Below are positions 13,010 through 58,371 of a stretch of 64,000 nucleotides of DNA, in pieces. The stretch lies in NCBI GenBank assembly GCA_946187775.1, contig CAMHSI010000001.1, forward strand, positions 20,988 to 84,987, given 5' to 3'. The DNA is from an uncultured Clostridia bacterium. Its GTDB lineage: Bacteria; Bacillota; Clostridia; Christensenellales; Aristaeellaceae. Numbering within the stretch: position 1 is the stretch's first letter; each line of letters begins with the position of its first letter. The notes below the pieces were generated by a model. It saw only the letters and a list, made by a program, of their open reading frames with translations, searched no databases and had not been told where the DNA came from. The position numbers were made by a program, and so were the translations under genes.

Positions 13010-13029
13010 AGATACAGGAGAGATGACCA

Positions 13030-13974: not shown

Positions 13975-13998
13975 GGCGAAGATTCAACCAATCAATAA

Positions 13999-15519
<1,521 letters not shown>

Positions 15520-38905: not shown

Positions 38906-39958
38906 TTACTCCGCGGCGGAGAGCACGGCGTCGAAGGCCGGCTTGGCTTGGCGGTCGGCGGAAAAGAGCAGGGGGAAACTGGGCTCCCGGCGGAAGCCCG
39001 GAAGCCAGCTGTCCGCGTCGGTGACGCCCCAGAAGGTGACGGCCTCGATGCAGATCCCCTCCCGGGAAAGCTTTTTCATCATGGAGAACCAGCTGCCGTA
39101 CAGGCCGGCGAGGGCCTCCCGGGCGGCTTCATCATCGGAGGCGCAGTGGATATCCAGCTCGGTGACCTGCAGCTTCAGGCCCAGGGCCGCGTAAGAGCGG
39201 GCGGCGGTTTCACATTGCGCGATATCCAGGCTGCTGAGCACATAGTGGCCCTGCATCCCCATGGTATCCACCAGGTTTTCCGCCTGCAGGGTTTTCAGCA
39301 TGCGGAGGATGGCGTCCCGCTTGACGGGATCAAAGGCGTTATAGTCGTTGTAGCAAAGGGTCTGCCCCGGGGCGGCGCCCCTGCGGGCGGCGCGGAAGGC
39401 AGCCGGGAGGAAGTCCTGTCCGGTGAGGGCAAACCAGGGGCTCCGGGTGCGGTAGAAGCCGGGGCCTCCCTGATCCGGCTCGATGGCTTCATTCACCACA
39501 TCCCAGGTGTATACCACGCCGGGGAAGGCGGTGTTCACATGATTCATCACATCAAGGATATAGTTTTCCAGGCGGGCGAGCATCACTTCCTTCGAAGCGG
39601 GGGGAGCGTCCGTTTCCGCCTCCCAGTTTTCCCGGAAGAACCATACGGGAGTCTGGTTATGCCAGAGAAGGGTATGGAACCGCATGGGAATACCGTTGTC
39701 CCGGGCAAAGGACAGCAGGGCGTCCACCCGGGTGAAATCCAGGACGGCATGGCGGGAATCCCCCCGGGCAAGGGTTCCTGCCCGGTCCAGCACGCTCTCC
39801 GGCTTCATCTGGTTATCCGCGGTGATGGAATTGAAATGTCGGCAGACAATCTGCGCGAGCTCCGGATCCGCCAGGAGCCGGCTGCTGAGGGCGGCGCCGA
39901 CGCGGAAGCAGGGTTCGAAGGCTTTGAAAAGGGAAGGGGCCTGGAGCGCGCTTATCAT
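38906..39958 (-). CDS. GH10 endo-1,4-beta-xylanase (no signal peptide)
   Basis: HTLLWHNQTP, acid/base WDVVNEA, YNDYN, GMQGH and nucleophile VTELDI; start moved to ATG 39958 after AGGAGGT. Confidence 0.92.
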   Translation of the reverse strand: MISALQAPSLFKAFEPCFRVGAALSSRLLADPELAQIVCRHFNSITADNQMKPESVLDRAGTLARGDSRHAVLDFTRVDALLSFARDNGIPMRFHTLLWHNQTPVWFFRENWEAETDAPPASKEVMLARLENYILDVMNHVNTAFPGVVYTWDVVNEAIEPDQGGPGFYRTRSPWFALTGQDFLPAAFRAARRGAAPGQTLCYNDYNAFDPVKRDAILRMLKTLQAENLVDTMGMQGHYVLSSLDIAQCETAARSYAALGLKLQVTELDIHCASDDEAAREALAGLYGSWFSMMKKLSREGICIEAVTFWGVTDADSWLPGFRREPSFPLLFSADRQAKPAFDAVLSAAE

Positions 39959-39990
39959 GGGTCGGTGTACCTCCTGTTTCTCGTGGATAC

Positions 39991-40020
39991 AGTATAACAG
40001 AGAAAAGACCGTGTACGCAA
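39991..40020 (-). promoter_or_regulatory. SigA-type promoter of GH10
   Basis: Minus strand TTGCGT-N18-TATACT with extended -10 TG. Confidence 0.55.
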
Positions 40021-40070: not shown

Positions 40071-40099
40071 TTGAGGGAAAGGGGGGAGTATGGTATAAT
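40071..40099 (+). promoter_or_regulatory. SigA-type promoter of the acyltransferase gene
   Basis: TTGAGG-N17-TATAAT with extended -10 TG. Confidence 0.7.
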
Positions 40100-40134: not shown

Positions 40135-41403
40135 ATGAGGAAGCAATGGTACCGGCTGGATAACGCGGCGCTGATTTTTCCGGCGGTAATGCGGAAAAAC
40201 TGGAACAATGTGTTCCGGGTATCGGTAACGCTGCGGGACAAGGTGGATCCGGAGACGCTGAGCCGGGCAGCGGAGGATTTACTGGCAAGATTTCCCACGA
40301 TTTATGTCCGGCTCAGGACGGGGTTTTTCTGGTACTACCTGGAGACGGTGAACAAGGCGCCGAAGGCGGAGGAGGATTACGCCTGGCCCCTGACCCCAAT
40401 GAGCCGCCGGAAACTGAAAAAATGCTGCATACGCATTCTTTATTATCAAAACAGAATCGCCGTTGAGTTTTTCCATTCCGTGACGGACGGGCACGGGGGA
40501 ATGGCTTTCCTGAAAAACCTTACGGCTCGCTACCTGACGCTGAAGGAAGACATCGCCGTTCCGGCGGAAGGGGAGATTGTGGATCCGGCGGAGGCTCCCC
40601 GGCGGGAGGAAACCCGGGACTGCTTCCAGCTGTGCGGAGCGAAGAAAGGCATCTCCCGGGCGGAGGAGAACGCCTACCGGCTGCGGGGCAATCCGGAGGA
40701 GGATTCCTTCCGCTACATCGTGACGGGCATCGTTCCTACGGAAAAGCTGGTGGAGAAAGCCCACGAGCAGAAGGTGACGGTGACGGCGTGGCTGGCGGCG
40801 GTGATGGCGGAGGCTGTGCAGAAGCGCCGGGAAGAGGACCCGCACCCCGGGAGGAGAAGGCATATCAAGATCACGATTCCGGTGGATCTCCGCCGGACCT
40901 TCGGGATGAATACCATGCGCAATTTCTCCCTGGCGGTGAACATCGGATTTGATCCCCTGCTGGGAGAATACAGCCACGGGGAAATCTGCCGGCTGATGTA
41001 CCACCAGCTGGCGGCGGAAACTATTCCCCAGCGGATGGCCGGGCGGGTAGCCACCAACGTGAACCTGCAGCGGAGCCTGCTCCTGCGGCTGGTTCCCCTT
41101 CCGCTGAAGACGCAGGCCATGCGGCTGGTCTATTCCCTGAGCGGGGAAAGCAAGGGATGCCTGAATATCTCCAATATGGGAACCGTGACGCTGCCGGAGG
41201 CGATGGTTCCCTATGTGGAACGGTTTGATTTTGTGATCGGGGTGCAGTATTCCTATCCCAACAACTGCTCGGTGGTGAGCTGGCAGGGGAAAACCTGCAT
41301 CAACATGATCCGGGGGATCCGGGATTCGGAGCTGGAGCGGCTTTTCTTCTCCCTGCTGGTGGAGAAGGGGCTCCCGGTGGAGATTGAAAGCAACAGGCGG
41401 TGA
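40135..41403 (+). CDS. Alcohol acetyltransferase-like CoA-dependent acyltransferase (condensation/CAT fold)
   Basis: WYRLDNAA, catalytic FFHSVTDG (HxxxDG), IPVDLR, RNF and SNMG. Confidence 0.82.
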   Translation: MRKQWYRLDNAALIFPAVMRKNWNNVFRVSVTLRDKVDPETLSRAAEDLLARFPTIYVRLRTGFFWYYLETVNKAPKAEEDYAWPLTPMSRRKLKKCCIRILYYQNRIAVEFFHSVTDGHGGMAFLKNLTARYLTLKEDIAVPAEGEIVDPAEAPRREETRDCFQLCGAKKGISRAEENAYRLRGNPEEDSFRYIVTGIVPTEKLVEKAHEQKVTVTAWLAAVMAEAVQKRREEDPHPGRRRHIKITIPVDLRRTFGMNTMRNFSLAVNIGFDPLLGEYSHGEICRLMYHQLAAETIPQRMAGRVATNVNLQRSLLLRLVPLPLKTQAMRLVYSLSGESKGCLNISNMGTVTLPEAMVPYVERFDFVIGVQYSYPNNCSVVSWQGKTCINMIRGIRDSELERLFFSLLVEKGLPVEIESNRR

Positions 41404-42110
41404 GGAACATGTATTGCGTATATTGCGGAGTAAAGCTGCAGGACGGGGCGGAGGAATGTCCCCTGTGCCACACGGCGGTGGCGCTGCCTCTGCGGGACGG
41501 CCCGCAGGCGGTGAAACAGGAGGCCTGGTCGGACCGGGTGCCCCGGGCGGAAAAGCAGAGCGGGAAATACCTGGCGGCCGGGCTGGTGACGGTGATTCTT
41601 GCGGCGGCAGCGCTGAGCTGCCTGATTTTCTGCCTGAAGAGCCTGGGAGAGGCGGCCTGGTCCGGCTATGTGGCGCTGGGCATGGCCCTGCTGTGGGTAT
41701 GGCTGGTACTCCCGGTGCTGTTTCCAAGGTGGAGGCCGATGATCTTCCTGCCGCTGGATTTCGCATGTCTGGCGGGATACCTGCTGTACATCTGCGCGAA
41801 GACGGGAGGAAACTGGTTCCTGAGCTTCGCCTTCCCGGTAACGGCGCTGATTGCAATCGTTACCCTGGCCGGGGTGGCCATGATGCGCTACATCGTGCAG
41901 GGCCGGCTGCGGCTGATGAGCCTGCTGGTGATTTTCATCGGGCTGAGTTTCATGCTGATTGAGTTTTTCCAGCACATCACCTTCGGGACCCCGATGTTTG
42001 TCTGGTCCCTTTACTGCGTGAGCGGTTTCTGTCTGATCGGACTGTTCCTGCTGGTTTCTTCCTTTGTCCCGTCCATGCGGGGATGGCTGAGGCGAAAATT
42101 TTTCTTTTGA
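41400..42110 (+). CDS. Zinc-ribbon + multi-TM membrane protein (DUF6320-like)
   Basis: YCVYCG...CPLC followed by 6 TMs and a basic C-terminal LRRKFFF; overlaps the acyltransferase stop. Confidence 0.78.
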   Translation: MRNMYCVYCGVKLQDGAEECPLCHTAVALPLRDGPQAVKQEAWSDRVPRAEKQSGKYLAAGLVTVILAAAALSCLIFCLKSLGEAAWSGYVALGMALLWVWLVLPVLFPRWRPMIFLPLDFACLAGYLLYICAKTGGNWFLSFAFPVTALIAIVTLAGVAMMRYIVQGRLRLMSLLVIFIGLSFMLIEFFQHITFGTPMFVWSLYCVSGFCLIGLFLLVSSFVPSMRGWLRRKFFF

Positions 42111-42181: not shown

Positions 42182-44674
42182 ATGATTCGGAAAGTATTTG
42201 GATGGATGGCCGCGCTGGCGCTTCTCCTGGGGATCCTGTGCCCGGGAGCCCTGGCGGACAGCCTTCATACGGAAATCGGGAACGACGCGCTGGAGGTCAG
42301 CGTCGCTTTGGGATATGACGGAAAAATGACCTACGGAAAGAGCATGCCCGTGCGGGTGACGGTGCGGAACAACGGAGAGGACCTGGAGGGAACCGTTGCC
42401 GTGAACGCATATGCCAGCGGGCTGAAATACGACCGGTACGAGACGGACATTTCCGTGCCGGCGGGCGGGGAGCGGACGGTGCTGCTGGCCGTGAACGCGG
42501 GAACCCGCCAGGACATTTTCACGGTGGAGATCCTGCGGGAAAACCGGGTGATCTGCGCCGTGAACACAAAGCCGGAAGGAATCATCAACCCCTCTGCCAT
42601 GATGATCGGGGTGCTTTCCTCCCGGCCCCGGAACCTGACATACCTGGATATCAACACGGAAAACGACACCCTGAACCGGTATGAGTTCTGGCAGACGGTG
42701 CCGCTGACGCCGGAAACCCTGCCGGAGGATCCGCAGCTGCTGGAATCCTTCGGTATGCTGGTGCTGGACGATCCGGACACAGCGCTGTGGACGGATCGGC
42801 AGCGGGAGGCGGTGCGGCAGTGGCTGGAAGGCGGAGGCCTCCTGATCTGCGGCGGCGGAGCCGCCGCGCCCGAAAACCTGGCATTCCTGGACTGCGGCCT
42901 GCGGGTGTCGGAGTTTACGGTTTCCGACGGGGTGCATGAAGCGCTGGAAAGCTACGCGGGCCGGAAGCACACGGACCGGAAGCCGGAGGTTGCCCTGGCC
43001 GTGATCGAAGGCAGGGTGCCGCTGGTGAGGGACGCGGACGGAAACGGGCTGCTCTGGCGGGTGCCCGCGGAGAGCGGAGCGGCCTATGTGCTGGCCTGGG
43101 AAGCGGGGGATCCGGCGATGAGCGCGGATCCGATGATGCATGCTTTCTTCCAGCAGGTGTTTGTGCGGGATGAACAGTCGCTTTACAACAGCGCCCTCTA
43201 CGCAATGGGAAGGAACGGAATCCAGAATACCGTCGGGGACAACAACCCGGTTCCGGTCCGCAATTCGCTTCCGCTGGCGGTCTGGATTGTGGCGGGCGCG
43301 GCGGCGCTGGGATGCGCGGCCTGGTTCCTGCTGAAACGCAGGGAAATGTCCCGGTGGATGTGGGTTGTGCTGCCGGCGCTGGCCGCGGCGGCGGGAACCG
43401 CGGTGCTGCTGGTTGCCGCTTCCTCCGCCATGAACAGGCCGGTGGCGGGCATGGTGGTGAACACACTCCAGCTGCAGGACGGACGCACGGACTGCTATAC
43501 CACGGTGTCCGTGGCGGCTCCGCGGCCCGGCGCCCACAGCTATGAGATCGAAGGGGAAAGGCCCGAGGTCCTGGCCCGGGACGAGTACTACTGGGAGAAC
43601 GAGGAAGATGAGGATGCCCCGAAGGAGCCGGTGATCCTGCGGATGAGCCGGCGGAACGGGGAGAGGAACAGCGTGACGGTGTATCCGGAAAGCGCCTGGG
43701 AGACGGTTCAGATGGCCGCCCACCGCCGGGTGCAGGAAACGGGCCGGGTCCGGGCGGAAATCTGGATGGAGGAGGACGGCCTGCACGGGGAAGTGGTCAA
43801 CGGAACGGAACAGAAGCTGAAGGAGGGAACCGTGTTCACCATATGGGGCTATGTCGGAATTCCGGCGCTGGCTCCGGGGGAGAGCGCTCCCTTTGTCCTG
43901 AAAGCGGAGGACGCGCCGGATCCCGCCGCACCGGTATTCCGGGACGGCGTGATGCTCCGGAACACGGGTTCCACCCTGTACAGCGTGATCAGCCAGAAGT
44001 TCTACGGAACCGGGATGGTCGACTATGACCGGCCGGACCTGCGGACGGATGTGATTTCCTCCGCGGCGGATGAGGTCACCCGGGCGAGAGCGGCCCGGGG
44101 AGGCACCGACCGGGAATCCGCCACCATTATTTACAGTGCGGAGCCGGAGAAAACGGAAGCGGCTCCGGTGTTCGCGGACGGGGAAAGGATCGAAAGCATT
44201 TCCGTGACGGAGGTGCGCACAACAGAGGTGGAATACCTGTCCGTGGGACGGACCGGACTGGTTTCCCGGGCGGCAGGCATGGACAAGGCGGTTCGCTGCG
44301 CCCTGGACGCGGACGGCATGCCCGACGGCGTCATGGAAGCAAGCCAGTCCAAGTACGGATACACCTATTACGACGTATCGGAAAACCCCGTCTTCCGCTT
44401 CCGGCCGGAAGGACTGGAAAACACGGAAATTACCATGATCCGGATCAGCATGGATGAGTGGTACGTAAACGATGTGCGGCTGTTTGTGCTGAACGCGAAG
44501 AAGCAGGAATGGGAGGAGAAACCGGTGAACACGCCCCTGGACCGGCCGGCGGACTACCTGGACGCGGAGGGCAGCCTGTACTGCCAGCTGCGGCCTGCCG
44601 CGCCGGACGGCTATACGGAAGTATCCGCGCCGACGATTTCGGTGGAAGGGAGGGTAAAGCATGCTGCGCCTTGA
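42182..44674 (+). CDS. Large exported membrane protein with class I GATase-like domain and central TM hairpin
   Basis: Signal peptide; Ig-like PVRVTVRNNG; LESFGMLVLDD...QREAVRQWLEGGGLLICGGG; two TMs around LKRRE; start moved to ATG 42182. Confidence 0.75.
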   Translation: MIRKVFGWMAALALLLGILCPGALADSLHTEIGNDALEVSVALGYDGKMTYGKSMPVRVTVRNNGEDLEGTVAVNAYASGLKYDRYETDISVPAGGERTVLLAVNAGTRQDIFTVEILRENRVICAVNTKPEGIINPSAMMIGVLSSRPRNLTYLDINTENDTLNRYEFWQTVPLTPETLPEDPQLLESFGMLVLDDPDTALWTDRQREAVRQWLEGGGLLICGGGAAAPENLAFLDCGLRVSEFTVSDGVHEALESYAGRKHTDRKPEVALAVIEGRVPLVRDADGNGLLWRVPAESGAAYVLAWEAGDPAMSADPMMHAFFQQVFVRDEQSLYNSALYAMGRNGIQNTVGDNNPVPVRNSLPLAVWIVAGAAALGCAAWFLLKRREMSRWMWVVLPALAAAAGTAVLLVAASSAMNRPVAGMVVNTLQLQDGRTDCYTTVSVAAPRPGAHSYEIEGERPEVLARDEYYWENEEDEDAPKEPVILRMSRRNGERNSVTVYPESAWETVQMAAHRRVQETGRVRAEIWMEEDGLHGEVVNGTEQKLKEGTVFTIWGYVGIPALAPGESAPFVLKAEDAPDPAAPVFRDGVMLRNTGSTLYSVISQKFYGTGMVDYDRPDLRTDVISSAADEVTRARAARGGTDRESATIIYSAEPEKTEAAPVFADGERIESISVTEVRTTEVEYLSVGRTGLVSRAAGMDKAVRCALDADGMPDGVMEASQSKYGYTYYDVSENPVFRFRPEGLENTEITMIRISMDEWYVNDVRLFVLNAKKQEWEEKPVNTPLDRPADYLDAEGSLYCQLRPAAPDGYTEVSAPTISVEGRVKHAAP

Positions 44675-45599
44675 CAAGCTGACAAAACAGTACGGAAAAT
44701 TCACGGCCCTGGACGGGCTGAGCCTGGAGATCGCGGACGGCCAGCTCCACGGCTTCGTGGGGCCCAACGGCGCCGGGAAGACCACCACCATGCGGATCAT
44801 CTCCACCCTCCTGCAGCCGACCTCCGGAACGGCGGAGATCGACGGGGTGGACGTGGTTCGCTCCGGGAGCAAAGCCCGGAAGCTGATTGGCTATATGCCG
44901 GATTTCTTCGGCGTATACGACAGCCTGAAATGCTGGGAATACCTTGATTTCTACGGCCGGTGCTACCGGCTGTCCGCCGGGGAGCGGAAACAGATGGCGG
45001 ATCAGCTGCTGGACCTGGTTCAGCTGACGGAGAAGCGGGACGCCTATGTGGATTCCCTTTCCCGGGGAATGAAGCAGCGCCTGTGCCTGGCCCGGAGCCT
45101 GATTCATGACCCGAAGCTGCTGATCCTGGACGAACCGGCCTCCGGAATGGACCCCCGGGCCCGGGCAGAGATGAAGGGGATCCTGAAAACCCTGCGGGAC
45201 ATGGGAAAGACGGTGATGATCTCCTCCCATATCCTGCCGGAGCTGAGTGAGATGTGCGACAGCCTGACTATCCTGGACCACGGACACCTGGTTTTTTCCG
45301 GAAGCGTGGAGGAGCTGTCGGAGAAGATGAACGGAAACGCGCCGCTGGATATCCGGCTGCAGGCGGGCTGCGGGGAGGAAACGGTGGAACGCGCCGTGGC
45401 CTGCCTGAAGGAGCTGCCTTTTATCCGGGAAATCCTGCAGGAGGAAACAACCCTGCTGCGGGCCAGGCTGGAGGGCGGGGAAGCGGAGACGCAGCAGATC
45501 CTGCGGGAGCTGGTCTCCCGGAATATTCCCGTTTGCGATTTCCACCGGGCACCCATGAATCTGGAGAAGGTCTTCATGGAGGTGACAGTCGATGCTTAA
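44661..45599 (+). CDS. ABC-2 type exporter ATP-binding protein
   Basis: GPNGAGKTT, IGYMPDFFGVY, LSRGMKQR, LDEPASG and ISSH. Confidence 0.93.
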   Translation: MLRLDKLTKQYGKFTALDGLSLEIADGQLHGFVGPNGAGKTTTMRIISTLLQPTSGTAEIDGVDVVRSGSKARKLIGYMPDFFGVYDSLKCWEYLDFYGRCYRLSAGERKQMADQLLDLVQLTEKRDAYVDSLSRGMKQRLCLARSLIHDPKLLILDEPASGMDPRARAEMKGILKTLRDMGKTVMISSHILPELSEMCDSLTILDHGHLVFSGSVEELSEKMNGNAPLDIRLQAGCGEETVERAVACLKELPFIREILQEETTLLRARLEGGEAETQQILRELVSRNIPVCDFHRAPMNLEKVFMEVTVDA

Positions 45600-46506
45600 T
45601 CCGATTCTTTCCTTCTCGGCCACGCGCCGGATGCGGAGCGGGAAGACCCTGGTCATCCTGGGCGCATGGCTGGCGGTGATGCTGGGAACGGCGCTGCTGA
45701 TGATGGGAAGGCTGCTGGGGCCTGAGGTGACCGTCAACGGCCTGCGCTCCGGCACCAACTGCTATATCGTGCTGATGATTGTACAGTTTTTCCTGATTGT
45801 GCTGATTTCCCCGGCCATGACCTCCGGCACCGTTGCCGGAGAGCGGGAACGGCAGACGCTGGAGCTGCTGCTGGTGACCAATACCCGGTCCCTGCGCATC
45901 GTCTGGGGAAAAGCGATGGACAGCTTCGGCATGCTGTGCCTGCTGCTGGTCTGCGGGGCGCCGGTGATGTTCCTTCCGGCGGTGGCCGGCGCGGTGACGC
46001 CGCTGCAGGTGCTGGAGGGAGAGCTGTTCCTGCTGGTGACTGCCTTCGCGGCGGTCTGCGTGGGGATGCTGGCATCCGCTGTGGCACGGACCTCCATGGC
46101 CGGAGGGATCCTGGCCTACCTGTTTGTTTTCGGGATCGCAGTGGTGACCTCCCTGCCGCTTTTCCTGGATTACCCCCAGGCGGTGACGGACATCGTGTAC
46201 GATCCCCGGGCCCTGGCGCAGCTGTCCCCCGGGGCGGCGACGGCGATGATTTTCCCCGTCCTGTTCCTGAATCCGGGCTACGGGCTCATTGCCCTGCTGC
46301 ACGGGCAGACGCGGTTCCTGAGCTCCGCGCTGCAATACCAGCAGACGGGCCGCCTGCTCTGCTCCTTCAACCTGATGGACCGGGCCGGAGGCGAAAGGAT
46401 CGCGCTGATCAGCTCGGGGGCCGTGCTGCTGCTGGGCCTGGCGCTGCTGTTCCTGTCCGCCGCGTTTGTAAGGCGGAGGGGATTCGGGGGAAAACGGAAA
46501 GGATAA
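45592..46506 (+). CDS. ABC-2 type permease
   Basis: PAMTSGTVAGERERQTLELLLVT...IVWGK; about 6 TMs. Confidence 0.88.
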   Translation: MLNPILSFSATRRMRSGKTLVILGAWLAVMLGTALLMMGRLLGPEVTVNGLRSGTNCYIVLMIVQFFLIVLISPAMTSGTVAGERERQTLELLLVTNTRSLRIVWGKAMDSFGMLCLLLVCGAPVMFLPAVAGAVTPLQVLEGELFLLVTAFAAVCVGMLASAVARTSMAGGILAYLFVFGIAVVTSLPLFLDYPQAVTDIVYDPRALAQLSPGAATAMIFPVLFLNPGYGLIALLHGQTRFLSSALQYQQTGRLLCSFNLMDRAGGERIALISSGAVLLLGLALLFLSAAFVRRRGFGGKRKG

Positions 46507-46509
46507 ACG

Positions 46510-47970
46510 ATGACAGAGTTGATAAAAGCCCTGGGACCGGTAAAGCGCAGGCTCCGGCTGGGAAGGCTGCTCAGCGGGGCCGCGGCAGGCTTTGCCGCAG
46601 GCGCGGCGGCCGCGCTGGCGCTCCTTACGGTGACGGTCTTTGTTCCGCTGGAGGGGCGGCTGCTGTATGCGGCGGCGCTGGCGGCGGGAGGAACGCTGGC
46701 GGGAGCCCTGGGGAACGCGCTGCGGCCGGTGAAAAACGAAGAGGCTGCCCGGGCGGCGGACGGCTGCGGGCTGCGGGAGCGGACGATTACGGCGCTGGAG
46801 CTGGCGGACGCCCCGGATTCTGAAATGCTGAAAGCCCAGCGGGAAGACGCCGCGGCCTGCCTGAAGGCCCTGGATCCCCGGCAGATCCGCTTTCGCCCTC
46901 CGCGGAAGCTCCTGGCCGCGGGAGCGGCGGCGCTGGCCCTGTGCGTGATTCCGGCGCTCCTGCAGGGACCCGGGGAAAAGCAGGTAAGCCTCCGCAGGGA
47001 ACTGCGGGACCGGGTGGCGCAGATGGAAAAACAGATTGACGACGCCGAAGCGAAGGAAGAGAAGTCCGGAATTTCCGAAAAGGAAAAGGCGGAGCTCCGG
47101 CGGCTGACGGAGGACCTGAAGCGGGAGCTGTCGGAAAGCCGGGATACGGTGGACGCAATGGTTGCCCTGGACAAGGCGGAAACCCGGCTGGAGGAAATCC
47201 GGCCGAAGACGGCGGGAGACGCGGAAAAAGCGATGCAGGAGCTGGCGGAGGCCCTGGCCGGCGCGGGAATGGACGCCGCGGCCCAGGCGCTGGAAGCCGC
47301 GGACGCCGCGGCCCTGGCCGCCCAGGCAGGGGGCCTGGACGCGGATGCGGTGCGCAGCGCGGCGGAAAACCTGGCCGCCGAAGCCCGGGAGATGGCGGAA
47401 CAGCTTGCGTCGGCCGCGCAGCAGGGACAGATGTCCGCCTCCGAAGCGCAGCAGATGATGAGCGGCAGCCAGGAGGGCCAGCAGCCCGGCAGCCCGATGC
47501 AGCAGGCGCTCTCCGGAATGAAGGCCATGCTGGGAGGACAGGGACAGAACGCGTCCCCTTCAGGCGCCGGTTCCGGCGGGCAGGCAGGGGGATCCGGGAA
47601 GCAGCCCGGCGGCGGGGCCGGCAGCGGAACCACCAACGAGGAGCAGAAGGGCAGCGGAAGCAGCCCCTCCTCCGGCGGAAAGGGAAGCCGGGAACCCGAA
47701 TTCAAGGAAGCTGAGTACGAAACCATTTACGATCCGGAAAAGGTGGAGGCGGCCAGCCGGGATGTTGCCACGGAGCAGCACAGCCTGGGAAAGGATTCGG
47801 TGCAGATTGAAACCGGACCGGGCAAGGGAAGCCTGCAAGGGGATGTGCCCTACCGGCAGGTGGTCGGAGAGTACGCCCGGGAAGAGGTACAGGCGGCGGA
47901 ATCCGCCCGGCTGACCCGGGAGCAGAAGGAATGGGTGGACGAGTATTACCGGAGGATTACGGAGGAGTAA
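46510..47970 (+). CDS. Membrane-anchored coiled-coil protein with Gly/Ser/Gln-rich linker (DUF4175-like architecture)
   Basis: Three N-terminal TMs, LRERTITALE, long Ala/Glu helical region, G/S/Q low complexity, C-terminal VPYRQVVGEY...VDEYY. Confidence 0.75.
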   Translation: MTELIKALGPVKRRLRLGRLLSGAAAGFAAGAAAALALLTVTVFVPLEGRLLYAAALAAGGTLAGALGNALRPVKNEEAARAADGCGLRERTITALELADAPDSEMLKAQREDAAACLKALDPRQIRFRPPRKLLAAGAAALALCVIPALLQGPGEKQVSLRRELRDRVAQMEKQIDDAEAKEEKSGISEKEKAELRRLTEDLKRELSESRDTVDAMVALDKAETRLEEIRPKTAGDAEKAMQELAEALAGAGMDAAAQALEAADAAALAAQAGGLDADAVRSAAENLAAEAREMAEQLASAAQQGQMSASEAQQMMSGSQEGQQPGSPMQQALSGMKAMLGGQGQNASPSGAGSGGQAGGSGKQPGGGAGSGTTNEEQKGSGSSPSSGGKGSREPEFKEAEYETIYDPEKVEAASRDVATEQHSLGKDSVQIETGPGKGSLQGDVPYRQVVGEYAREEVQAAESARLTREQKEWVDEYYRRITEE

Positions 47971-48026
47971 GGAGCCGCGGGTTCCTGCCTCCGGACGGCC
48001 GGAAAACAGAGCATATGGGGGAGAAT

Positions 48027-48992
48027 ATGAACGCGAAGGATTTTGCTGAGAAGTATGAAAAGGTACGGGGAGAAATCGCGAAGGAAATGATCGGGCAGGA
48101 GGATGTGGTGGAGCATCTGCTGCTGGCGGTGATCGCAGGGGGAAACGTCCTGCTGGAAGGCGTTCCCGGCCTGGGAAAGACCCATCTGGTGCGGGTGCTG
48201 AGCAAGACGCTGGACCTGCCCTTTTCCCGGATCCAGTTTACGCCGGACCTGATGCCCGCGGACATCACCGGAACGAATATCCTCATCCGCACGGAGGAGG
48301 GGAGCAGTTTCCGGTTCCAGCAGGGGCCGCTGTTTGCCTCCATCGTGCTGGCGGATGAAATCAACCGCGCCACGCCCAAGACCCAGGCGGCCCTGCTGGA
48401 GGCCATGCAGGAGCACAGCGTTACCGTGGCGGGGGAAACCATGCGCCTGCCGGAACCCTATTTCGTGCTGGCGACCCAGAACCCGGTGGAGCAGGAAGGC
48501 ACCTATCCGCTGCCGGAAGCCCAGCTGGACCGGTTCCTTTTCAAGGTGCTGGTTCCCTTCCCGAACCTGGAGGAGCTGGGCGGAATCATGAACCTGACCG
48601 TGGGTGGACAGACAAGGGACGCCGGAAAGGCTGCGGACGCGCGGGAGCTGCTGGAGATGCGGGAGACCGCCCGGCAGGTTCCGGTGGCGGAAAGCGTACA
48701 GCAGAGCGCCCTCCGGCTGATCCTGGCAACGCATCCGGAGCTGGCGGAGGCACCGGAGATCACCCGGAAATACCTGCGCTTTGGCGCCAGTCCCCGGGCG
48801 GCCCAGGCCATCCTTTCCACCGCCCGGGTCCGGGCGCTGGAGCAGGGACGCTTCAATGTGGCCTATGAGGATATCCGCTATGTGGCTCCGGCCTGCCTGC
48901 GCCACCGCCTGGCCCTGAACTTCGCCGCGGTGACGGAGGGGAAGGATATGGAATCCATCGTGGCGGAGCTGGTGGACGCCTATGTTAAGTGA
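48027..48992 (+). CDS. moxR: MoxR family AAA+ ATPase
   Basis: LLEGVPGLGKT, RIQFTPDLMPADITG, LADEINRATPKTQAALLEAMQE, ATQNPVEQEGTYPLPEAQLDRF and GASPRA; start moved to ATG 48027. Confidence 0.95.
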   Translation: MNAKDFAEKYEKVRGEIAKEMIGQEDVVEHLLLAVIAGGNVLLEGVPGLGKTHLVRVLSKTLDLPFSRIQFTPDLMPADITGTNILIRTEEGSSFRFQQGPLFASIVLADEINRATPKTQAALLEAMQEHSVTVAGETMRLPEPYFVLATQNPVEQEGTYPLPEAQLDRFLFKVLVPFPNLEELGGIMNLTVGGQTRDAGKAADARELLEMRETARQVPVAESVQQSALRLILATHPELAEAPEITRKYLRFGASPRAAQAILSTARVRALEQGRFNVAYEDIRYVAPACLRHRLALNFAAVTEGKDMESIVAELVDAYVK

Positions 48993-49830
48993 CGCTTTTC
49001 TTTCCCGGCTGGACACGCTGCAGCTGGCCATGAAGGGCCGGGCTTCCGGCGGAGCCGGCGGCACCCGCCGCTCCCGGCAGACCGGGTCCTCCGCGGAATT
49101 TTCCGATTACCGGGAGTACATCCCCGGGGACGACATCCGGCGGATCGACTGGAACGCCATGGCGAGGTTTGACAAAATTTTCCTGAAGCTTTTCATGGAG
49201 GAACAGGAATCCGCCGTCACCGTGCTGCTGGACGGCAGCGCGTCCATGGGGGAGAAGTGGGACAGCGCCCGGAAGGCCGCGGAAGCGGTGAGCTATCTTG
49301 CCCTTACCGGCGGCGACCGGCTCCGGCTGATTCTCCTGCAGGAGGAAGGCAACAGGGTATCCCCCCGGCTTTCCGGACGGCAGGCGTTTGCCCGGCTGGA
49401 GCAGTTCCTGGATACCTGCGCCCCCCGGGGAGCCGGGAACCTGACGGAAGAGGTGTTCCGGGCGGAGGGCCTGGGAAAGGGCCTGTGCTTCCTGATTTCC
49501 GACTGCTACGGGGAGGGGGGCATTGCCACAGCGCTGGACAACCTGCGCTACCGGGGGCAGGAATGCGCTGTGATCCAGCCCCTTTCCGCCTTCGAGCTGC
49601 GCCCGGAGCTGGACGGAGCCCTGCGGCTGACGGACAGCGAGACCGGGGAAACCGTGGACCTGCTGGCAGACCGGGAGGCCCTGGAAAGCTACCGACGCGC
49701 CCTGGAGGCGTTCCTGCGGGAGGTCCGGGAGACCTGTTTCCGCCGGGAAACCCCCTACGCCCTGCTGGATGCCGGGAAGGATTTTGAGGAACAATGGATT
49801 CCCATGATTTCCGCGGCGGGGATGATTTAG
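48982..49830 (+). CDS. DUF58 vWA-like protein
   Basis: EFSDYREYIPGDDIRRIDWN, LLDGSASM and ISD. Confidence 0.92.
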   Translation: MLSDAFLSRLDTLQLAMKGRASGGAGGTRRSRQTGSSAEFSDYREYIPGDDIRRIDWNAMARFDKIFLKLFMEEQESAVTVLLDGSASMGEKWDSARKAAEAVSYLALTGGDRLRLILLQEEGNRVSPRLSGRQAFARLEQFLDTCAPRGAGNLTEEVFRAEGLGKGLCFLISDCYGEGGIATALDNLRYRGQECAVIQPLSAFELRPELDGALRLTDSETGETVDLLADREALESYRRALEAFLREVRETCFRRETPYALLDAGKDFEEQWIPMISAAGMI

Positions 49831-49845
49831 TATGGAGATGGAAGA

Positions 49846-51411
49846 ATGATTTCGTTTGCTGCTCCGCAGTTTGCCTGGTTCCTGGCGGTGCCCGCCGGCA
49901 TCGTGGTGCTTTACCTGCTGCGAAGGAAATACCTCCCGCGGCCGGTTCCCAGCACCTTTCTCTGGCGGACGGCCATCCGGGATCACGCTGCCAACAAGCC
50001 GCTTCAGAAGCTGCGGAAAAACCTGCTGCTGCCGGTACAGGTACTGGCGGCCCTGGCCCTGGCCCTGGCGCTGATGCAGCCGGTGCTGGCGGGACAGGAG
50101 GCGTCCCGGACGGTGATGATTTTTGACCTTTCCGCCGGCATGCAGTCCATGACCGCCGGGAAAACCCGGCTGGAGGAAGCCCGGGAGGAGGCGGAGGCGA
50201 TCCTCAGCGGCCTTCCTTCCGGGGAGGAAGTTACAATCCTTGCCGCCGGGGAGGAAGTGCGCCAGGTGCTGTCCGGCAGCACGGACCGGGAGGATATACG
50301 GCAGGCGCTCCGGGGGCTGGCCTGCGGCCGGGCCGGTGCGAACCTGAACCGCGCGGTGTCCCTGGCGGAGGCCATCCGCCGGGAGGACCCCGAGCGGGGG
50401 GCCCGGATCATTGTGTTTTCAGACAATTACATTCCGCCGGAAGGAATTTCCGCGGTGAACGTCGGGAAGAGCGCGGCGAACCGGGGAATATACGCCCTGA
50501 CGGCGGAGGACGGGTCCGCGTACGCCCGGATCTGCAATTACGGGGAGGACTGCGTCCTCACGGTGATCTGCGAGGCGGACGGCAGCCTGTGCGAGGCGAA
50601 GGAGACGGAGATTCCCGCCGGGGAAACAGCCGGCGTGCTCTTTGCCATTCCCCGGGACGCCTCCGTTGTGGAGGTGAGGATCCGGGAGAAGGACGCCCTT
50701 GAGGCGGACAATTCCGCCCGGGCGGCAGTGCGCCGCAGCGCGGCCCGGACCGTGGCGCTGACGGGGGACAGCCTGTTCCTTGAAAGCGCCCTGCAGATCC
50801 GGCCGGAGCTGCGGGTGGTACGCATGAAGGAGGACGCTCCGGCGGAAACCGAGGCGGACCTGTATATTTACGGCACCTCTCCCCTGGTTTTCACCACGGA
50901 TCCCGAAAAAACGGAGATTACCTGGTCCGAGGAGAAAACGCCGGAAGGCAGCATCTCGGCGGAGGATACGCCGCTGACCGGCGGCGTTACCCTGCGCGGC
51001 ATGACGCTGCGCTCCTGCCGGGAGCTGACCGGCGGCCGGGCGGCAATCCGCGCCGGGGACAGCGTCATCGCGGCCTATACGGACCGGGAGGCGGTCATCG
51101 GCTTCAGCCTGCAGGATACGAACCTGCCGCTGAAATATGATTTCCCCATCCTGGTCCAGAACATCCTGAACCTGCTGCTGCCGAGGACGGAGGAAGCGGA
51201 AACGGTGACGGAGCTTCCCGTGCCGCGGGAGGAAAGCGACGCGCGCAGCGTCGCGCCGGACCGGGAAGCCGGCGGAAGCGCGGACGCGGGAAGCCGGGGG
51301 CAGGACCTGAGCGGAATGCTGCTGGGGCTGTTCCTCGCATTGCTGGTGATTGAGTTTGTGCTGGCCAGGGAACCCTGGACCCGCTGTCGGAAAAAGGAGG
51401 CCGCGGGATGA
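49846..51411 (+). CDS. BatA N-terminal + vWA domain membrane protein
   Basis: BatA double TM (LYLLRRK...PSTFLW...LALMQP), vWA with degenerate MIDAS IFDLSAGM, C-terminal TM LLVIE. Confidence 0.85.
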   Translation: MISFAAPQFAWFLAVPAGIVVLYLLRRKYLPRPVPSTFLWRTAIRDHAANKPLQKLRKNLLLPVQVLAALALALALMQPVLAGQEASRTVMIFDLSAGMQSMTAGKTRLEEAREEAEAILSGLPSGEEVTILAAGEEVRQVLSGSTDREDIRQALRGLACGRAGANLNRAVSLAEAIRREDPERGARIIVFSDNYIPPEGISAVNVGKSAANRGIYALTAEDGSAYARICNYGEDCVLTVICEADGSLCEAKETEIPAGETAGVLFAIPRDASVVEVRIREKDALEADNSARAAVRRSAARTVALTGDSLFLESALQIRPELRVVRMKEDAPAETEADLYIYGTSPLVFTTDPEKTEITWSEEKTPEGSISAEDTPLTGGVTLRGMTLRSCRELTGGRAAIRAGDSVIAAYTDREAVIGFSLQDTNLPLKYDFPILVQNILNLLLPRTEEAETVTELPVPREESDARSVAPDREAGGSADAGSRGQDLSGMLLGLFLALLVIEFVLAREPWTRCRKKEAAG

Positions 51412-54065
51412 ATATTGAGATTGCGCATCCGCTGCGGCTGCTGGCGATTCCGGTCTGCGCCGGAATCATCTTCCTGGCTGCAAGGATACAGAAAAGCAGA
51501 AGCCGGAAGGAGCGGGTCTCCCATATCCTCCGGTATGTGCTGATTCTCCTGGTTTCCCTGGCCATCGCCGGGACAAGCCTGCTGACGGCCAGCCCGGACA
51601 AGACGGCCTGGCTGGTGCTGGACGTATCCGCCTCTGTGAAGGAGGAGGAAGTGCTTTCCCTGGCCCGTCAGGCCCTGGGGGAATCCGGCGGGGAAAGGAA
51701 AACGGGGATCATCGTGTTCGGCCGGGACGCTGCGGTGGAGCGGTCCATCGGCGGAACCGGGGAGCTTACGGAAATTCACGCGGCTGCCGACCGGAGCGGA
51801 AGCGACCTGGGAGAGGCCCTGACCCTGGCTTCCGCGCTGCTGCCGACGGACTCCAACGGCGGAATCGCCGTGATCAGCGACGGAGCGGTTACGGGGGCGG
51901 AGAAATGGCTGAAGGCAGGAAACCCTGTGGCTGTGAATATCCTGAAGGCAGGGAGGAACTCCGGACCGGACGCCCAGGTAACGGAAATCTCGGTTCCGGA
52001 TACCCTGTATGAAGGACAGAAATATACCACGCTGGTGACGGTGCATTCCAACACCGCCGGAGAGGCCACGCTGCTGCTGAGTGAAAACCGGGGGACGCCC
52101 CGGACCCAGCGGGTTACCCTTCGCAAGGGGGAAAACACCTTTGCCTTCGAATCCACCGCGGGAAGCAGCGGCGTGATCCCCTGCGAGGCCCGGATCCTCC
52201 TGGAGGGGGACACGGCGCCGGCCAACAACCTGAACAGCGCCTTTTCCGTGGTCACCGGCGGGATGAATGTGCTGGTGGCGGAAGGTACCGCCGGGGACGG
52301 CGGGGAGCTGCAGCGCATGCTGGAGAGCGCCGGAATGAAGGTGCGGACCATCCCGGCGTCCATGCTCAGCGACAAGGCGGCGGAGCTGTGGGCCTACCAG
52401 GCGGTTGCCCTGGTGAATGTGGACGCGGACCAGCTCAGCGCGGAGCAGACGAAAGCGCTGGACGAGGCCGTGCGGAATCTCGGCTGCGGACTGGCGGTTT
52501 TCGGCGGGAATTCCAGCTATGCGCTGGGGGGATACCGGGGCAGCGAACTGGAAAAGATGCTTCCGGTGACCATTGACGTCAAAAACAAAATGGACCTTCC
52601 CTCCACCGCGCTGGTGATCGCCATCGACAAATCCGGCTCCATGATGGAAAGCTCCTGGGGGACCTCGCGCCTGCAGCTGGCCCGGGAAGCGGCCTGCGGC
52701 GCGCTGGAGGTGCTGAACGAAAGGGACAGCGCCGGGGTGATCGCCTTTGACGACGCGGGGAAATGGGTGGTTCCGCTCTCGCCCGTAACGGATGTGCCGG
52801 CCATGCAGGACCAGGTGCGGACCATCCGGCTGGGGGGAGGCACCGCCTTCTATTCCCCGCTGAAAATGGCGAAGGAGGCGCTGGAGGGCGCCAGCGCCCA
52901 GTACAAGCATGTGATCTTCCTGACGGACGGCGAGGCCGGGGACACCGGCTATGAAGGGCTGGTCCGGGAAATGGCGGAGGAAGGCATCACCGTAACCACC
53001 GTGGCGGTGGGGGACGGCGCCGACGCGGCCGGCATGCGGAAGCTGGCGCAGATCGGCGGGGGCCGGATGTACTTTGCAGGTCCCTTTGACAGCCTGCCGA
53101 AGATTTTCACCAAGGAAACCATGATGATTTCCGCGTCCTATGTACAGAACCGGGTTTTCACCCCTTCCGTGACGGACGCTTCCATGACGGATTTTGAGGG
53201 CTTTCCGCAGCTGTCGGGATATCTGGCGGCCACGGAGAAACCCCTGGCCACCGTATCCCTGTGCAGCGACCGGCAGGATCCGGTGCTGGCCTGGTGGCAG
53301 TACGGCGCGGGCAGGGTCGCGGCCTGGACAAGCGATGTGCAGGGAGGCTGGAGCAGCGCGTTCCTGCAGTGGAAGGACGCGCCGGCTTTCTTCGGCGGGA
53401 TTCTCTCTTTCGTGCTTCCCCACCGGGAAAACAACGGCAGCGCGGCGCTGGCGGACGGGAAACTGGTCTTTACCGCGGAGGCGGAGGAAGAGCTGCTGAG
53501 CCGGGCGGTGAAGGCGGAGGCGCAGATCATCCGGCCGGACGGCACGCGGGAAACCGCGGAGCTGGAGCAGACCAGCGCAGGCACCTTTGAGGGCGCGGCC
53601 GACACGGAGCAGGCGGGAGCCTACACGGTGCATGTATCCGTACGGGACAGGCTGGGGAATGAGCTGCTGGCGGCGGACTGCGGCGCGTCCGGATCCTGGA
53701 GCCGGGAATATGACCTGCGTTACGGGGATGAAGGCGCGCTGGAAAAGATCAGCGCGGAAACCGGCGGCAGGATCGCCCAGGGCCCCGGGGAGCTCCTCTC
53801 CTTCCGGGATACCAGCGCAAGGAAGCGCCGGGACCTGACGCCCCTGCTGGCGCTGCTGGCCGGGCTGCTGTTCCTCTTCGATGTGGCGCAGCGCAGGCTG
53901 GACTGGCTTCGGGAGCCGGAGGGGAAGGAAGAAACGCCCCCGGAAGAAAAGGAAACGAAGGCGGTAAAGCAGAAGAAAGCGAAGAAAAAGCCGGAGCCGG
54001 CGCCGGAGGAGAAAAAAGCGGCGGATGTGCTCTGGCAGCAGATGCAGAAAAAGAAAAGGCTGTAA
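51408..54065 (+). CDS. vWA + Ig-like + GATase-like + vWA membrane protein
   Basis: LDVSAS/ISDG; GGNSSYALGGY..SELEKMLPV; IDKSGSM/GGT/LTDGE; PVLAWWQYGAGRVAAWTSD; C-terminal TM and Lys-rich tail. Confidence 0.85.
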   Translation: MNIEIAHPLRLLAIPVCAGIIFLAARIQKSRSRKERVSHILRYVLILLVSLAIAGTSLLTASPDKTAWLVLDVSASVKEEEVLSLARQALGESGGERKTGIIVFGRDAAVERSIGGTGELTEIHAAADRSGSDLGEALTLASALLPTDSNGGIAVISDGAVTGAEKWLKAGNPVAVNILKAGRNSGPDAQVTEISVPDTLYEGQKYTTLVTVHSNTAGEATLLLSENRGTPRTQRVTLRKGENTFAFESTAGSSGVIPCEARILLEGDTAPANNLNSAFSVVTGGMNVLVAEGTAGDGGELQRMLESAGMKVRTIPASMLSDKAAELWAYQAVALVNVDADQLSAEQTKALDEAVRNLGCGLAVFGGNSSYALGGYRGSELEKMLPVTIDVKNKMDLPSTALVIAIDKSGSMMESSWGTSRLQLAREAACGALEVLNERDSAGVIAFDDAGKWVVPLSPVTDVPAMQDQVRTIRLGGGTAFYSPLKMAKEALEGASAQYKHVIFLTDGEAGDTGYEGLVREMAEEGITVTTVAVGDGADAAGMRKLAQIGGGRMYFAGPFDSLPKIFTKETMMISASYVQNRVFTPSVTDASMTDFEGFPQLSGYLAATEKPLATVSLCSDRQDPVLAWWQYGAGRVAAWTSDVQGGWSSAFLQWKDAPAFFGGILSFVLPHRENNGSAALADGKLVFTAEAEEELLSRAVKAEAQIIRPDGTRETAELEQTSAGTFEGAADTEQAGAYTVHVSVRDRLGNELLAADCGASGSWSREYDLRYGDEGALEKISAETGGRIAQGPGELLSFRDTSARKRRDLTPLLALLAGLLFLFDVAQRRLDWLREPEGKEETPPEEKETKAVKQKKAKKKPEPAPEEKKAADVLWQQMQKKKRL

Positions 54066-54067: not shown

Positions 54068-54106
54068 AAAAAAACAACCGGGATCCCGTCGGGGATCCCG
54101 GTTTTC
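54068..54106. terminator. Bidirectional terminator between the MoxR operon and potD
   Basis: aaccgggatccc-gtcg-gggatcccggtt with A and T tails. Confidence 0.85.
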
Positions 54107-56011: not shown

Positions 56012-56794
56012 TCATTCCTCCTCTGCCGCCCGGTCGATCTTCCGGGTGAAATACATGGCGGCGATAATAATCAGGGCCATAATCAGGGAAATGGCGCTGC
56101 CGAAGTTCCAGTCGCCGGCCACCAGGAAGTAGTTTTCGATCAGGGTTCCGATCAGCACATAGTTGCCGCCGCCCAGGAGCTTGGGGATCACGAAGCTGGA
56201 AACCGCAGGCAGGAACACCAGCGTCACGCCGGAGATGATTCCCGGAATGCTCAGGGGAAGCGTTACCTTCAGGAAGGATTTCCATTTGTCCGCTCCCAGG
56301 TCATAGCTGGCGGTGAGAAGCTCCCGGTCCAGCTTGGCGATGGCGGTGTGGATCTGGATGATCATATAGGGCAGGAAATCGTACACCATGCCGATGAAGA
56401 CCTTGATCTCGCTGGACATATCGTCAAAGTTCAGGAGAATGCCGCGCCAGGCGTAGGTTTTCAGGAGCATGTTGATCCACATGGGGAGGGTGATCAGCAG
56501 GATCATCAGCGTCTGCCTGCGTTCCGGCAGGTTCGCGATGAAAAGCGCCGCCGGGTAGCCGATGAGGATACACACCACGGTGGTAATGAAGGCGATCCGC
56601 AGGCTGGTCCACAGCACGCGCATGAAATCCGGGTCGGAAAAGAAGCGGCCGAAGTTTTCCAGGGTAAAATGGATGGTCAGCGTGCTGTTTCCGCCGCGGG
56701 TGAAGGCGTAGAGCAGGATCATGATCATGGGCGCCACGACGAATATCCCGATCCACAGGATGTAGGGATAGCTCATTCGAACAAAAGATTTCAT
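56012..56794 (-). CDS. potB: Spermidine/putrescine ABC permease
   Basis: [29 protein letters not shown] and LLGGG. Confidence 0.93.
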
Positions 56795-58371
56795 GCGTCC
56801 GCCACTTCCTTATGCATAACATGGATATCCTCCGGGCCGATGGAAAGGCCCACCCGGTCTCCCACCTCGTGGTGGGCGGTGGTTTCCACCTTGAAAACCC
56901 GGCCGCGGGTTGAGAAGGTAATCTGATAGGAGCCCTCCGTCACCGTCGCGGGATCAAAATCGAATTTCACATCGGTGATATCCACAGCGGTATCATCCTG
57001 CAGGTTCCAGGCTTCCGCGCTGGCCCAGGTTTTCAGGTCCGTGGAGATGGCCATGGATTCCTGCAGATCCTCCGGTGTGATGAAGAAATCCAGGGCGCTG
57101 ATACCGATATTGTGCCGGGCGTCCTCCACGTATTCGGGATGCACCACGTACACCTTTACGGTGACTTCCGTCCCTTTTTCCGTGCCGAAGGTAATATGGT
57201 AGACTCCTGGGGTGTTTCCGATATTGTGGGTGACCCGCGTCAGGGAAATATCCCGGTTATCCCCGTCCCAGGCCTGGGCGTTGGCGATGGAAATAAAGTC
57301 AGCGTCCGTCATTTCCCGGGTGTTCAGGTCCTCGGAGTCCACATAGAAATCATTGGCCGAGATCTTTTCCCCGGACTGGGGGTTCTCGATGTCATGCTGG
57401 GTGACCACGTGCATTTCCACGGTCTTGCTGGTACCGGTTTTCGTTTCCACCATCAGCTCGTAATGCACGCCCTTGAACAGGACGCTCTTCACCTCTCCCC
57501 GCATGACGCCTTCCTCGGGACGGACGATGGAAATATCCTCCGGGCGGATCAGGACATCCACCGGCTCATTGCTGCGGAAGCCGAAATCCACGCACTCATA
57601 ATCCCGGTCGTCGAAGCGGACTTTATAGTCCTCCTTCATGATTCCGTCCACGATGTTGCTCTCCCCGATGAAGCGGGCAACATACGCGTTCACGGGCTCG
57701 TTGTAGATTTCCAGCGGGGTGCCGATCTGCTTGATCTCCCCGGCGTTCATCACCACGATCTTGTCGCTCATGGTCAGGGCTTCCTCCTGGTCATGGGTAA
57801 CATAGATGAAGGTAATGCCGACCTCCTGCTGGATGCGCTTGAGTTCACGCTGCATTTCCTTGCGCAGCTTCAGGTCCAGCGCTCCCAGGGGCTCGTCCAG
57901 CAGCAGGACGTTGGGCTCGTTCACCAGGGCCCGGGCAATGGCCACCCGCTGCTGCTGGCCGCCGGAAAGCTTGGTGACCCTGCGCTTTTCATAGCCCTCC
58001 AGGTTCACCAGGGAGAGCATCCGGGAGACCTTCTGGCGGATGATGTCGTCGCCGGTCTTTTTGATGCGCAGGCCGAAGGCGATGTTCTCATATACATTCA
58101 GGTGGGGGAAAAGGGCATAGCGCTGGAACACGGTATTGATCTCCCGGCGGTACGGCGGCACCTTGTCAATGCACTGGCCGTCAAAGATCACGGTTCCCTC
58201 ATCCTGCTCCAGGAATCCGCCGAGGATCCGCAGCAGGGTGGTTTTCCCGCAGCCGGAGGGACCCAGCAGGGTAACGAATTCATTCTCATAGATATTCAGG
58301 TTGACGCCCTTGAGGACCACCTGCCCGTCAAAGGTTTTCACGATGTTTTTGAATTCGATGAGCTTGCGCAT
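56791..58371 (-). CDS. potA: Spermidine/putrescine ABC ATPase with ~180-aa insertion in the C-terminal domain
   Basis: [37 protein letters not shown] and [13 protein letters not shown]; 526 aa. Confidence 0.92.

Follow-up and report, generated by a model that had tools for sequence, protein, structure and literature searches.

The eight genes and their surroundings

The window that we analysed, a stretch of 64,000 nucleotides from an uncultured Clostridia bacterium, is filled between positions 42182 and 54065 by eight open reading frames, all on the + strand, named here g1 to g8 (Table 1). Successive genes are spaced by -14, -8, +3, +56, -11, +15 and -4 nucleotides. Pfam recognises, over cut-off, ABC_tran, AAA_3 (MoxR), DUF58, BatA together with VWA_2 (g7), and VWA together with GATase1_like (g8), while the same search gave no family over cut-off for g1 and g4. 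The tightly packed eight-gene operon proposed in the initial annotation is real: its frames share one strand and its gaps do not exceed 56 nucleotides. Within the host genome, which is 64% complete, g1 and g3 to g8 are each present as a single copy, with no paralogue elsewhere.

Table 1. Features of the operon, in positions of the window
Feature	Positions	Strand	Basis
g1, 830 aa, predicted accessory subunit of the ABC pair	42182..44674	+	fold, topology, synteny
g2, 312 aa, DrrA/GldA-type ABC ATPase	44661..45599	+	Pfam, motifs
g3, 304 aa, six-TM ABC-2-like permease	45592..46506	+	weak ABC2_membrane match below cut-off, topology
g4, 486 aa, three TM segments	46510..47970	+	alignment, topology
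g5, MoxR AAA+ ATPase, about 321 aa	48027..48992	+	AAA_3 209 bits
g6, DUF58, 282 aa, predicted cytoplasmic vWA adaptor, no TM	48982..49830	+	DUF58 99.5 bits
g7, 521 aa, BatA hairpin-vWA-Ig-GATase-like-TM	49846..51411	+	BatA 43.8 bits, topology
g7 codons 27-47, predicted DUF58-binding loop	49924..49986	+	complex model, conservation
g8, 885 aa, g7 paralogue	51408..54065	+	fold, hhalign
Hairpin of 12 pairs, likely bidirectional intrinsic terminator	54076..54103	.	A run before, T run after

The single terminator that had been placed at the end of the operon stands as a sequence pattern only, that of the 12-pair hairpin with its A and T runs, which separates the operon from convergent spermidine/putrescine-type ABC genes. 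Around the operon, Pfam identifies a xylanase, an acyltransferase-like gene and this polyamine-type ABC importer. In this genus, two further genes of the same strand lie 71 nucleotides upstream of the operon. The sequencing runs in which this DNA occurs come from the gut metagenomes of cattle and sheep; among named loci, those of Clostridia are the closest. RNA contigs from three studies (X9, X10 and X11) cover the operon in short pieces of low depth. Two of them bridge the g1/g2 junction, and none in these studies reaches 31 letters into both the ABC half (g1 to g3) and the MoxR half. Contigs from X3, which may contain DNA, cover the operon evenly throughout.

The ABC half and the coiled-coil protein

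The product of g1 begins with a signal peptide, followed by an Ig-like domain (residues 34-135), a GATase-like domain (138-340), a transmembrane hairpin (363-413) and beta-rich domains (417-826). Its structure model is of high quality (pLDDT 93.7, pTM 0.90), and hydropathy predicts that both of its large parts are outside the cell. The GATase-like domain noticed in the initial annotation is confirmed, by fold alone: residues 138-340 match 3rht (Z 13.8, rmsd 3.2, 180 residues aligned). They also match the N-domain of IFT52 (Z 12.2, rmsd 3.7, 180 aligned), and the same fold proves no function. Foldseek, run with the whole of g1, returned no full-length match (best TM 0.18); the C-terminal half, probed within the whole-protein model only, gave a mu-homology match with Z 9.7. 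DUF4350 is matched weakly by six of 31 relatives of g1, in no case over cut-off. In Bacillota, Acidobacteria and Planctomycetes, g1 adjoins an ABC ATPase gene.

The module made of an Ig and a GATase-like domain is common to g1 and g8 (hhalign 91.6%, E 8e-7), and g7 has it too. Activity as a class I glutamine amidotransferase was considered for it and rejected for want of a conserved cysteine nucleophile in either protein, Cys223 of g1 being present in 11 of 123 homologues and the matching stretch of g8 having no conserved cysteine. Walker A and B, the LSRGMKQ signature and the H-loop of g2 are intact; an ERERQTL motif is conserved in g3, for which a sequence search of the PDB retrieved no relative.

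Next comes g4, which consists of three transmembrane segments, a conserved cytoplasmic loop (D84, T94, D113), a coiled coil, a linker rich in Gly, Ser and Gln, and a C-terminal helix. This helix is conserved, with an Asp or Glu within the last three residues in all 34 aligned members. It had been suggested that it is a handle for MoxR or DUF58. Its three membrane segments, with more Lys/Arg ahead of the third (3.97) than behind it (2.38), speak against this: everything from the coiled coil onward is predicted to be outside, and the proposed handle would thus be on the wrong side for MoxR and DUF58. A distant match to DUF4175 was seen in one of the 34 members, and g4 is lost or relocated together with the MoxR half. 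Selenocysteine in g4 was rejected, there being no in-frame UGA here and no TGA in any of 100 full-span copies; the open frame has no Cys codon beyond residue 150, and the host genome, 64% complete, yielded no selB over cut-off. A CxxC motif appears in the linker of five copies among 112.

The MoxR half

The start of g5 was chosen at 48027, behind GGGGAGA. Walker A and B, sensor I and the arginine finger are intact in its product and invariant in 38 aligned copies; both ATPases of the operon, g2 and g5, thus keep intact motifs. In g6, the residues of the metal-binding MIDAS site (D84, S86, S88 and D174) are invariant, and a candidate for the finger that would enter the pore of MoxR is the conserved stretch 27-62, which immediately precedes the MIDAS strand.

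By hhalign, the last two genes, g7 and g8, prove to be paralogues (99%, E 2e-18); they are fused to one another in 10 of 80 named loci and also in Deinococcus. All 30 members of the g7 family examined have the BatA domain. The last MIDAS serine of g7 is a glycine in this copy and a serine in 90 of 94; the glycine was seen also in four independent runs. In g8, both MIDAS motifs are invariant. This protein had been described as a linear succession of vWA, GATase and vWA domains, a view that has to be amended: a transmembrane hairpin with a short basic loop is followed by vWA1, an Ig domain, a GATase-like domain into which vWA2 is inserted, a second Ig domain and a transmembrane segment. The model of the whole protein (pLDDT 82.3, pTM 0.52) has vWA2 within the GATase-like domain, and the range 286-672 matches 2gk3 with Z 27.7 and rmsd 1.8 over 201 aligned residues. 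The vWA domains resemble vWA folds of adhesins and matrix proteins.

Topology was estimated with our own script, from family-averaged hydropathy and the Lys/Arg bias (positive-inside rule), and no trained predictor. It places most of the protein mass of the operon on the outer face of the membrane. Only g2, g5, g6 and short loops are predicted to be inside, and the large domains of g1, g7 and g8 are predicted to be outside, together with the g4 tail. Topology measured for the BatA-vWA protein BB0173 of Borrelia agrees with a loop inside and a vWA domain outside (PMC5700661).

A predicted contact at the inner face of the membrane

Because a cytoplasmic motor is unable to reach outer vWA domains, DUF58 was folded together with residues 1-85 of g7 and Mg. 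The complex scored 0.73 in three runs, the best of three controls reaching 0.01. Of 157 solved complexes, 116 attain the mark set for this score, as do two of 215 mismatched pairs; these counts are only a rough guide here because our own alignments and Mg were used. At least 95% of contacts are common to the runs, and the partner has a pLDDT of at least 72.

In the model, residues 27-47 of g7 lie on DUF58 residues 87-92, 174-177 and 202-244, so that the loop spans the MIDAS face and the 212-221 segment, with W40 and L39 packing on Y237. The best pairs of the interface bring together S36, L39 and W40 of g7 with S88, D218 and Y237 of DUF58, residues found in 87 to 94 of 94 homologues. V34, S36, L39 and W40 are conserved in the loop, which as a whole is no better conserved than the remainder of g7 1-85 (2.09 versus 1.86 bits). 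Covariation between DUF58 and the loop gave no signal: of the 40 top-ranked pairs, 1.2 would be expected to fall in the interface and two did. The motifs are kept in Deinococcus and partly in Bacteroides. At the matching position, g8 has just a short basic loop.

Recall of an already solved complex is an unlikely origin for this model, since a sequence search of the PDB found no solved relative of either partner (best E 0.079 for DUF58; no match at E 10 for g7 1-85). No solved structure of a contact between DUF58 and a BatA loop was found, and no account of one in the open-access literature, although subscription papers may mention it. The model predicts that the MIDAS face of DUF58 docks on the cytoplasmic BatA loop of g7.

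Conservation of the two halves

Of the 24 genomes of the genus, 13 have g1, and precisely these 13 also have DUF58, both halves being jointly missing in the other 11; wherever the contig permits, gene order is identical. We then drew evenly from the class 299 other Clostridia genomes, at least 90% complete. Among these, g8 is present in 31, g1 in 32 and both in 30. The exceptions are G089, with g8 alone, and G106 and G218, which have g1 without g8 and lack DUF58 as well. Among the 31 loci that carry g8, the full set stands in order at 20, of which four have one or two genes broken; two further loci reach contig ends, seven are split with both pieces kept, one is decayed and one is without g1. 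Splits occur at varied places: between g5 and g6 in five genomes, on the g3|g4 side in two and between g6 and g7 in the Blastocatellia genome G343, with g5-g6 moved out in two.

A second set was made of 80 named loci, from which 22 with less than 9 kb of upstream sequence were set aside. All eight genes were found in 51 of the remaining 58, in 50 of these in the present order; the genomes are akin and at least two are common to the class draw and the named loci, so that the two sets of counts are not independent. The named loci include Clostridium, Lachnospiraceae, Paenibacillus, Brevibacillus, Desulfosporosinus, a Chloroflexota metagenome-assembled genome and a rearranged copy in Xenobia, in which the ABC genes sit between MoxR and DUF58. 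The locus of Clostridium tetanomorphum is without the ABC ATPase. Among the loci compared, no client gene is conserved beside the operon, nor is any biosynthetic or substrate gene conserved near it.

Outside Bacillota, the linkage between the ABC half and the MoxR half is looser. In G343, g1 to g6 are together and g7-g8 apart; across 60 genomes of its phylum, g8 occurs in nine, g1 in five and both in four. Homologues of g1 are located elsewhere in Planctomycetes and Poribacteria, with g1-g2 pairs set apart, in several copies, in Planctomycetes. In Deinococcus aetherius, an importer-type ABC system replaces the ABC-2 set beside the MoxR half. The initial annotation had made its reading depend on the two halves being conserved together. 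On these counts they are so in Bacillota (30 genomes with both, one and two with either alone, n = 299), and only partly elsewhere.

What the operon might do

We propose that the operon encodes an ATP-driven trans-membrane machine that would remodel the envelope, behaving like NorQD inside the cell and like MxaRSACKL outside, and we give this proposal an even chance of being right. It combines a gene content, a co-inheritance and intact motifs that are matters of observation with predicted topology, folds and DUF58-loop contact. In NorQD, a finger of the vWA protein enters the pore of the MoxR-type ring and the vWA domain is twisted (PMC13036017, PMC9976466); by analogy, the cytoplasmic MoxR motor would turn the DUF58 adaptor. 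DUF58 would grip the cytoplasmic loop of the g7 membrane hairpin, and a pull on this hairpin would reposition the metal-binding vWA domains of g7 and g8, which are predicted to be outside and may act as a pair, as their genes fuse. By analogy with metal loading by MxaRSACKL, these domains might act on an exported client, which they would fold, load, open or release. As its partner or client, the MoxR half would likely have the ABC-2 pair with the large outer subunit g1: mostly outer in mass, this trio is the best candidate for that role because it is kept with the rest. A broader conjecture, which we regard as doubtful, is that the DUF58-BatA grip supplies the clutch that the MoxR-DUF58-BatA family as a whole has been missing, a general trans-membrane AAA+ transducer of force switching outer MIDAS domains from within the cell in the manner of integrins, with the ABC-2 system here adding a second motor to a single complex for the maturation of exported proteins.

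Several observations weigh against the remodelling machine: covariation gave no signal, the loop overall is not unusually conserved, the two halves occur apart in some genomes, no client gene is conserved beside the operon, and the last MIDAS serine of g7 is a glycine in this copy.

Binding of the loop would fit assembly or quality control of g7 equally with transfer of force. MoxR and DUF58 might grip it solely to assemble, unjam or recycle the complex, the outer array being a static scaffold or adhesin that transmits no force to a client. The same predicted contact suits this interpretation, as do the absence of any client gene travelling with the operon, the likeness of the vWA domains to those of adhesins and matrix proteins, and GATase-like domains without a conserved nucleophile. 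Yet the three outer MIDAS sites are nearly invariant, and every MoxR/vWA gene of the Mxa system, the relative studied best, is needed to load Ca2+ into a separate enzyme (PMC12276312); we hold this interpretation to be unlikely. Another way to account for the locus is to see in it two independent modules used under the same conditions, a g1-g2-g3 exporter of a small molecule, lipid or peptide, and a Bat-like set, g4-g8. The ABC half is alone in G218 and G106, the MoxR half is without detectable g1 in G089 and in five of the nine genomes of the G343 phylum, Planctomycetes keep multi-copy g1-g2 pairs apart, and the ABC system of Deinococcus is of a different type. All this would be expected of separate modules, but both pieces are retained after splits at varied sites, the Xenobia ABC genes are nested between MoxR and DUF58, the halves are jointly missing in 11 of the 24 genus genomes, and no conserved biosynthetic or substrate gene lies nearby; we find the two-module account distinctly unlikely.

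Secretion or extraction of a protein, with the permease and the membrane hairpins forming a channel through which the two ATPases would move their substrate, perhaps the tail of g4 or some surface protein, seems very unlikely to us. Makarova et al. predict a secretion system in the archaeal arCOG01314 cluster (GldG-like, vWA, Ig-like and MoxR proteins; PMC5898192), and the weak resemblance of g1 relatives to DUF4350 goes in the same direction. Against it, g1 carries a signal peptide, the other proteins are anchored by ordinary transmembrane segments, no cargo gene is linked, and the vWA finger of NorQD plugs the pore, so that the authors presume threading to be excluded (PMC9976466). As for the C-terminal helix of g4 being the handle pulled by MoxR and DUF58, it is conserved, its terminal Asp or Glu is a plausible MIDAS ligand, and g4 travels with the MoxR half; but topology alone disfavours the idea by predicting the tail outside, where the outer vWA domains are likelier partners, and in the model the MIDAS face of DUF58 is covered by the g7 loop. 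We find it barely credible.

The envelope-remodelling machine would matter beyond this locus. MoxR-DUF58-BatA operons are widespread, and both envelope defects and the loading of Ca2+ into methanol dehydrogenase have been connected with them; they present a puzzle, with the motor inside and vWA domains outside. A contact between DUF58 and the BatA loop described at the level of residues would, if true, close this gap. The predicted clutch is the new element, and it can be addressed with a few point mutants. Since the eight-gene form exists in cultured strains of Clostridium, Paenibacillus, Brevibacillus and Aneurinibacillus, knockouts are within reach.

Comparison with known systems

The operon is real, conserved and unexplained in the open-access literature, in which we found no description of the eight-gene set, although subscription papers may mention it. 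It is of the MoxR-DUF58-BatA kind and a member of neither the Bat nor the GldAFG systems. Its gene content is that which marks MoxR-proper (MRP) operons, an intact MoxR with adjacent DUF58 and BatA/vWA genes. The function of DUF58 is termed unclear in a 2025 review (PMC12067865). The Bat operons of Bacteroides, Leptospira and Borrelia, and the mycobacterial moxR1-DUF58-vWA set, likewise have MoxR, DUF58 and a pair of vWA paralogues with a TM hairpin, and their order is that seen here; MoxR, DUF58 and BatA of Bacteroides finegoldii match the profiles of the operon, and the DUF58 hairpin motif is kept. The differences are the extra Ig and GATase-like domains on the vWA proteins and the addition of the ABC-2 trio and g4. 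Membership in the Bat operons (BatA-E) was ruled out because TPR and BatD are missing: no Pfam match to these families was found on any of the eight genes, and both are present at the Bacteroides locus. In Leptospira biflexa, deletion of all bat genes gave no growth, shape or stress phenotype (PMC3557215), which speaks against the proposed machine.

With GldAFG and the arCOG01314 cluster, the operon shares an ABC ATPase and an ABC-2 permease, accompanied by a large outer subunit of GATase/GIFT-like fold. In contrast to GldAFG, g1 has a central transmembrane hairpin and about 400 further outer residues. Membership was ruled out, all Gld cut-offs being missed (GldA 216 against 402.6, GldF 21.7 against 288.5, and no GldG match on g1 at E 0.05). 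Another MoxR-led operon, cmdA-D of Rhizobium leguminosarum, presumably includes BatA and GATase-like content, and we take it to consist of four genes with no ABC trio. Its loss (RL3499-RL3502) is reported to harm envelope and shape, and RL3499 and RL3500 are listed, in a Tn-seq study, as growth-defective on complex medium (PMC5118466).

The Mxa system of methylotrophs likewise has a MoxR and several vWA proteins. One of these, MxaS, is in our assumption a DUF58 protein. A report on this system, which was rebuilt in Escherichia coli, states that MxaR, S, A, C, K and L are each required for Ca2+ loading of methanol dehydrogenase (PMC12276312). By comparison, the present operon has an ABC-2 trio, a monoderm host and no dehydrogenase or other client; Pfam found no methanol dehydrogenase gene linked to it among its neighbours. 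Finally, NorQ-NorD, together with CbbQ-CbbO, associates a MoxR hexamer with a vWA adaptor, and the MIDAS face of this adaptor meets a membrane target (PMC13036017, PMC9976466). In NorQD, the enzyme itself provides the MIDAS ligand, an acidic residue, whereas the predicted target here is a loop with Ser, Leu and Trp in a second vWA protein, the working end of which would be across the membrane.

Transcription and local variation in the operon

Immediately ahead of g1, the GATase-like outer subunit gene, lies a pair encoding an alcohol-acetyltransferase/PapA-like protein and a zinc-ribbon membrane protein (weak DUF6320), separated from the operon by 71 nt. The pair occupies this place in all 13 same-genus loci; at the other mapped Clostridia loci it was found at none. 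In the window the pair lies behind the only strong sigma70-like site, so a ten-gene transcript comprising the pair and g1-g8 may exist in this genus. A GH10 xylanase-family gene diverges from the pair. Downstream of the operon, a further gene encodes a 526-aa PotA-like ABC ATPase whose C terminus is extended by a long stretch of two similar repeats.

The metal-binding motif (MIDAS) of the vWA domain of g7 reads DxSxG, while 90 of 94 homologues have DxSxS. Four sequencing runs gave no alternative letter at this codon, and the substitution therefore looks species-specific rather than a sequencing error.

Features located in the window and at compared loci
Feature	Sequence	Position	Strand
GH10 xylanase-family gene	window	38906-39997	-
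sigma70-like site	window	40071-40099	
PapA-like/zinc-ribbon pair	window	40135-42110	+
g7 MIDAS codon	window	50137-50139	
PotA-like ABC ATPase gene	window	56791-58371	-
Motorless form	L136 (Clostridium tetanomorphum)	2194-12466	
Motorless form	L050 (genome G089)		
g4-like, MoxR, DUF58, fused g7-g8	L161 (Deinococcus aetherius plasmid)	4309-14772	

Divergent, decaying and motorless forms

A few Clostridia and Poribacteria (L041, L046, L100, L140, L141) carry a CxxC motif within the linker of g4. Relatives of g4 are present in all 11 Poribacteria genomes of the G342 phylum draw, at two places in six of them. Two loci of one family (L020 in G290, L047 in G045) hold an operon in decay: in one, g4 and g7 carry in-frame stops; in the other, g5-g6 have gone from the locus, with g4, g7 and g8 broken. 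Records L083 and L130, titled Calditrichales and Bacteroides sp., have operon profile scores and layout that agree with Clostridia and Lachnospiraceae; mislabelling or contamination is possible.

On the Deinococcus aetherius plasmid (L161), g4-like, MoxR and DUF58 genes and a fused g7-g8 lie behind an importer-type ABC set (binding protein, permeases, ATPase). The motorless form keeps g1 with a diverged permease-like gene and no ABC ATPase. In both L136 and L050 a 529-aa exported protein, with SLH and alpha-alpha toroid/TED-like Pfam matches in C. tetanomorphum, directly follows g8, and is a possible client.
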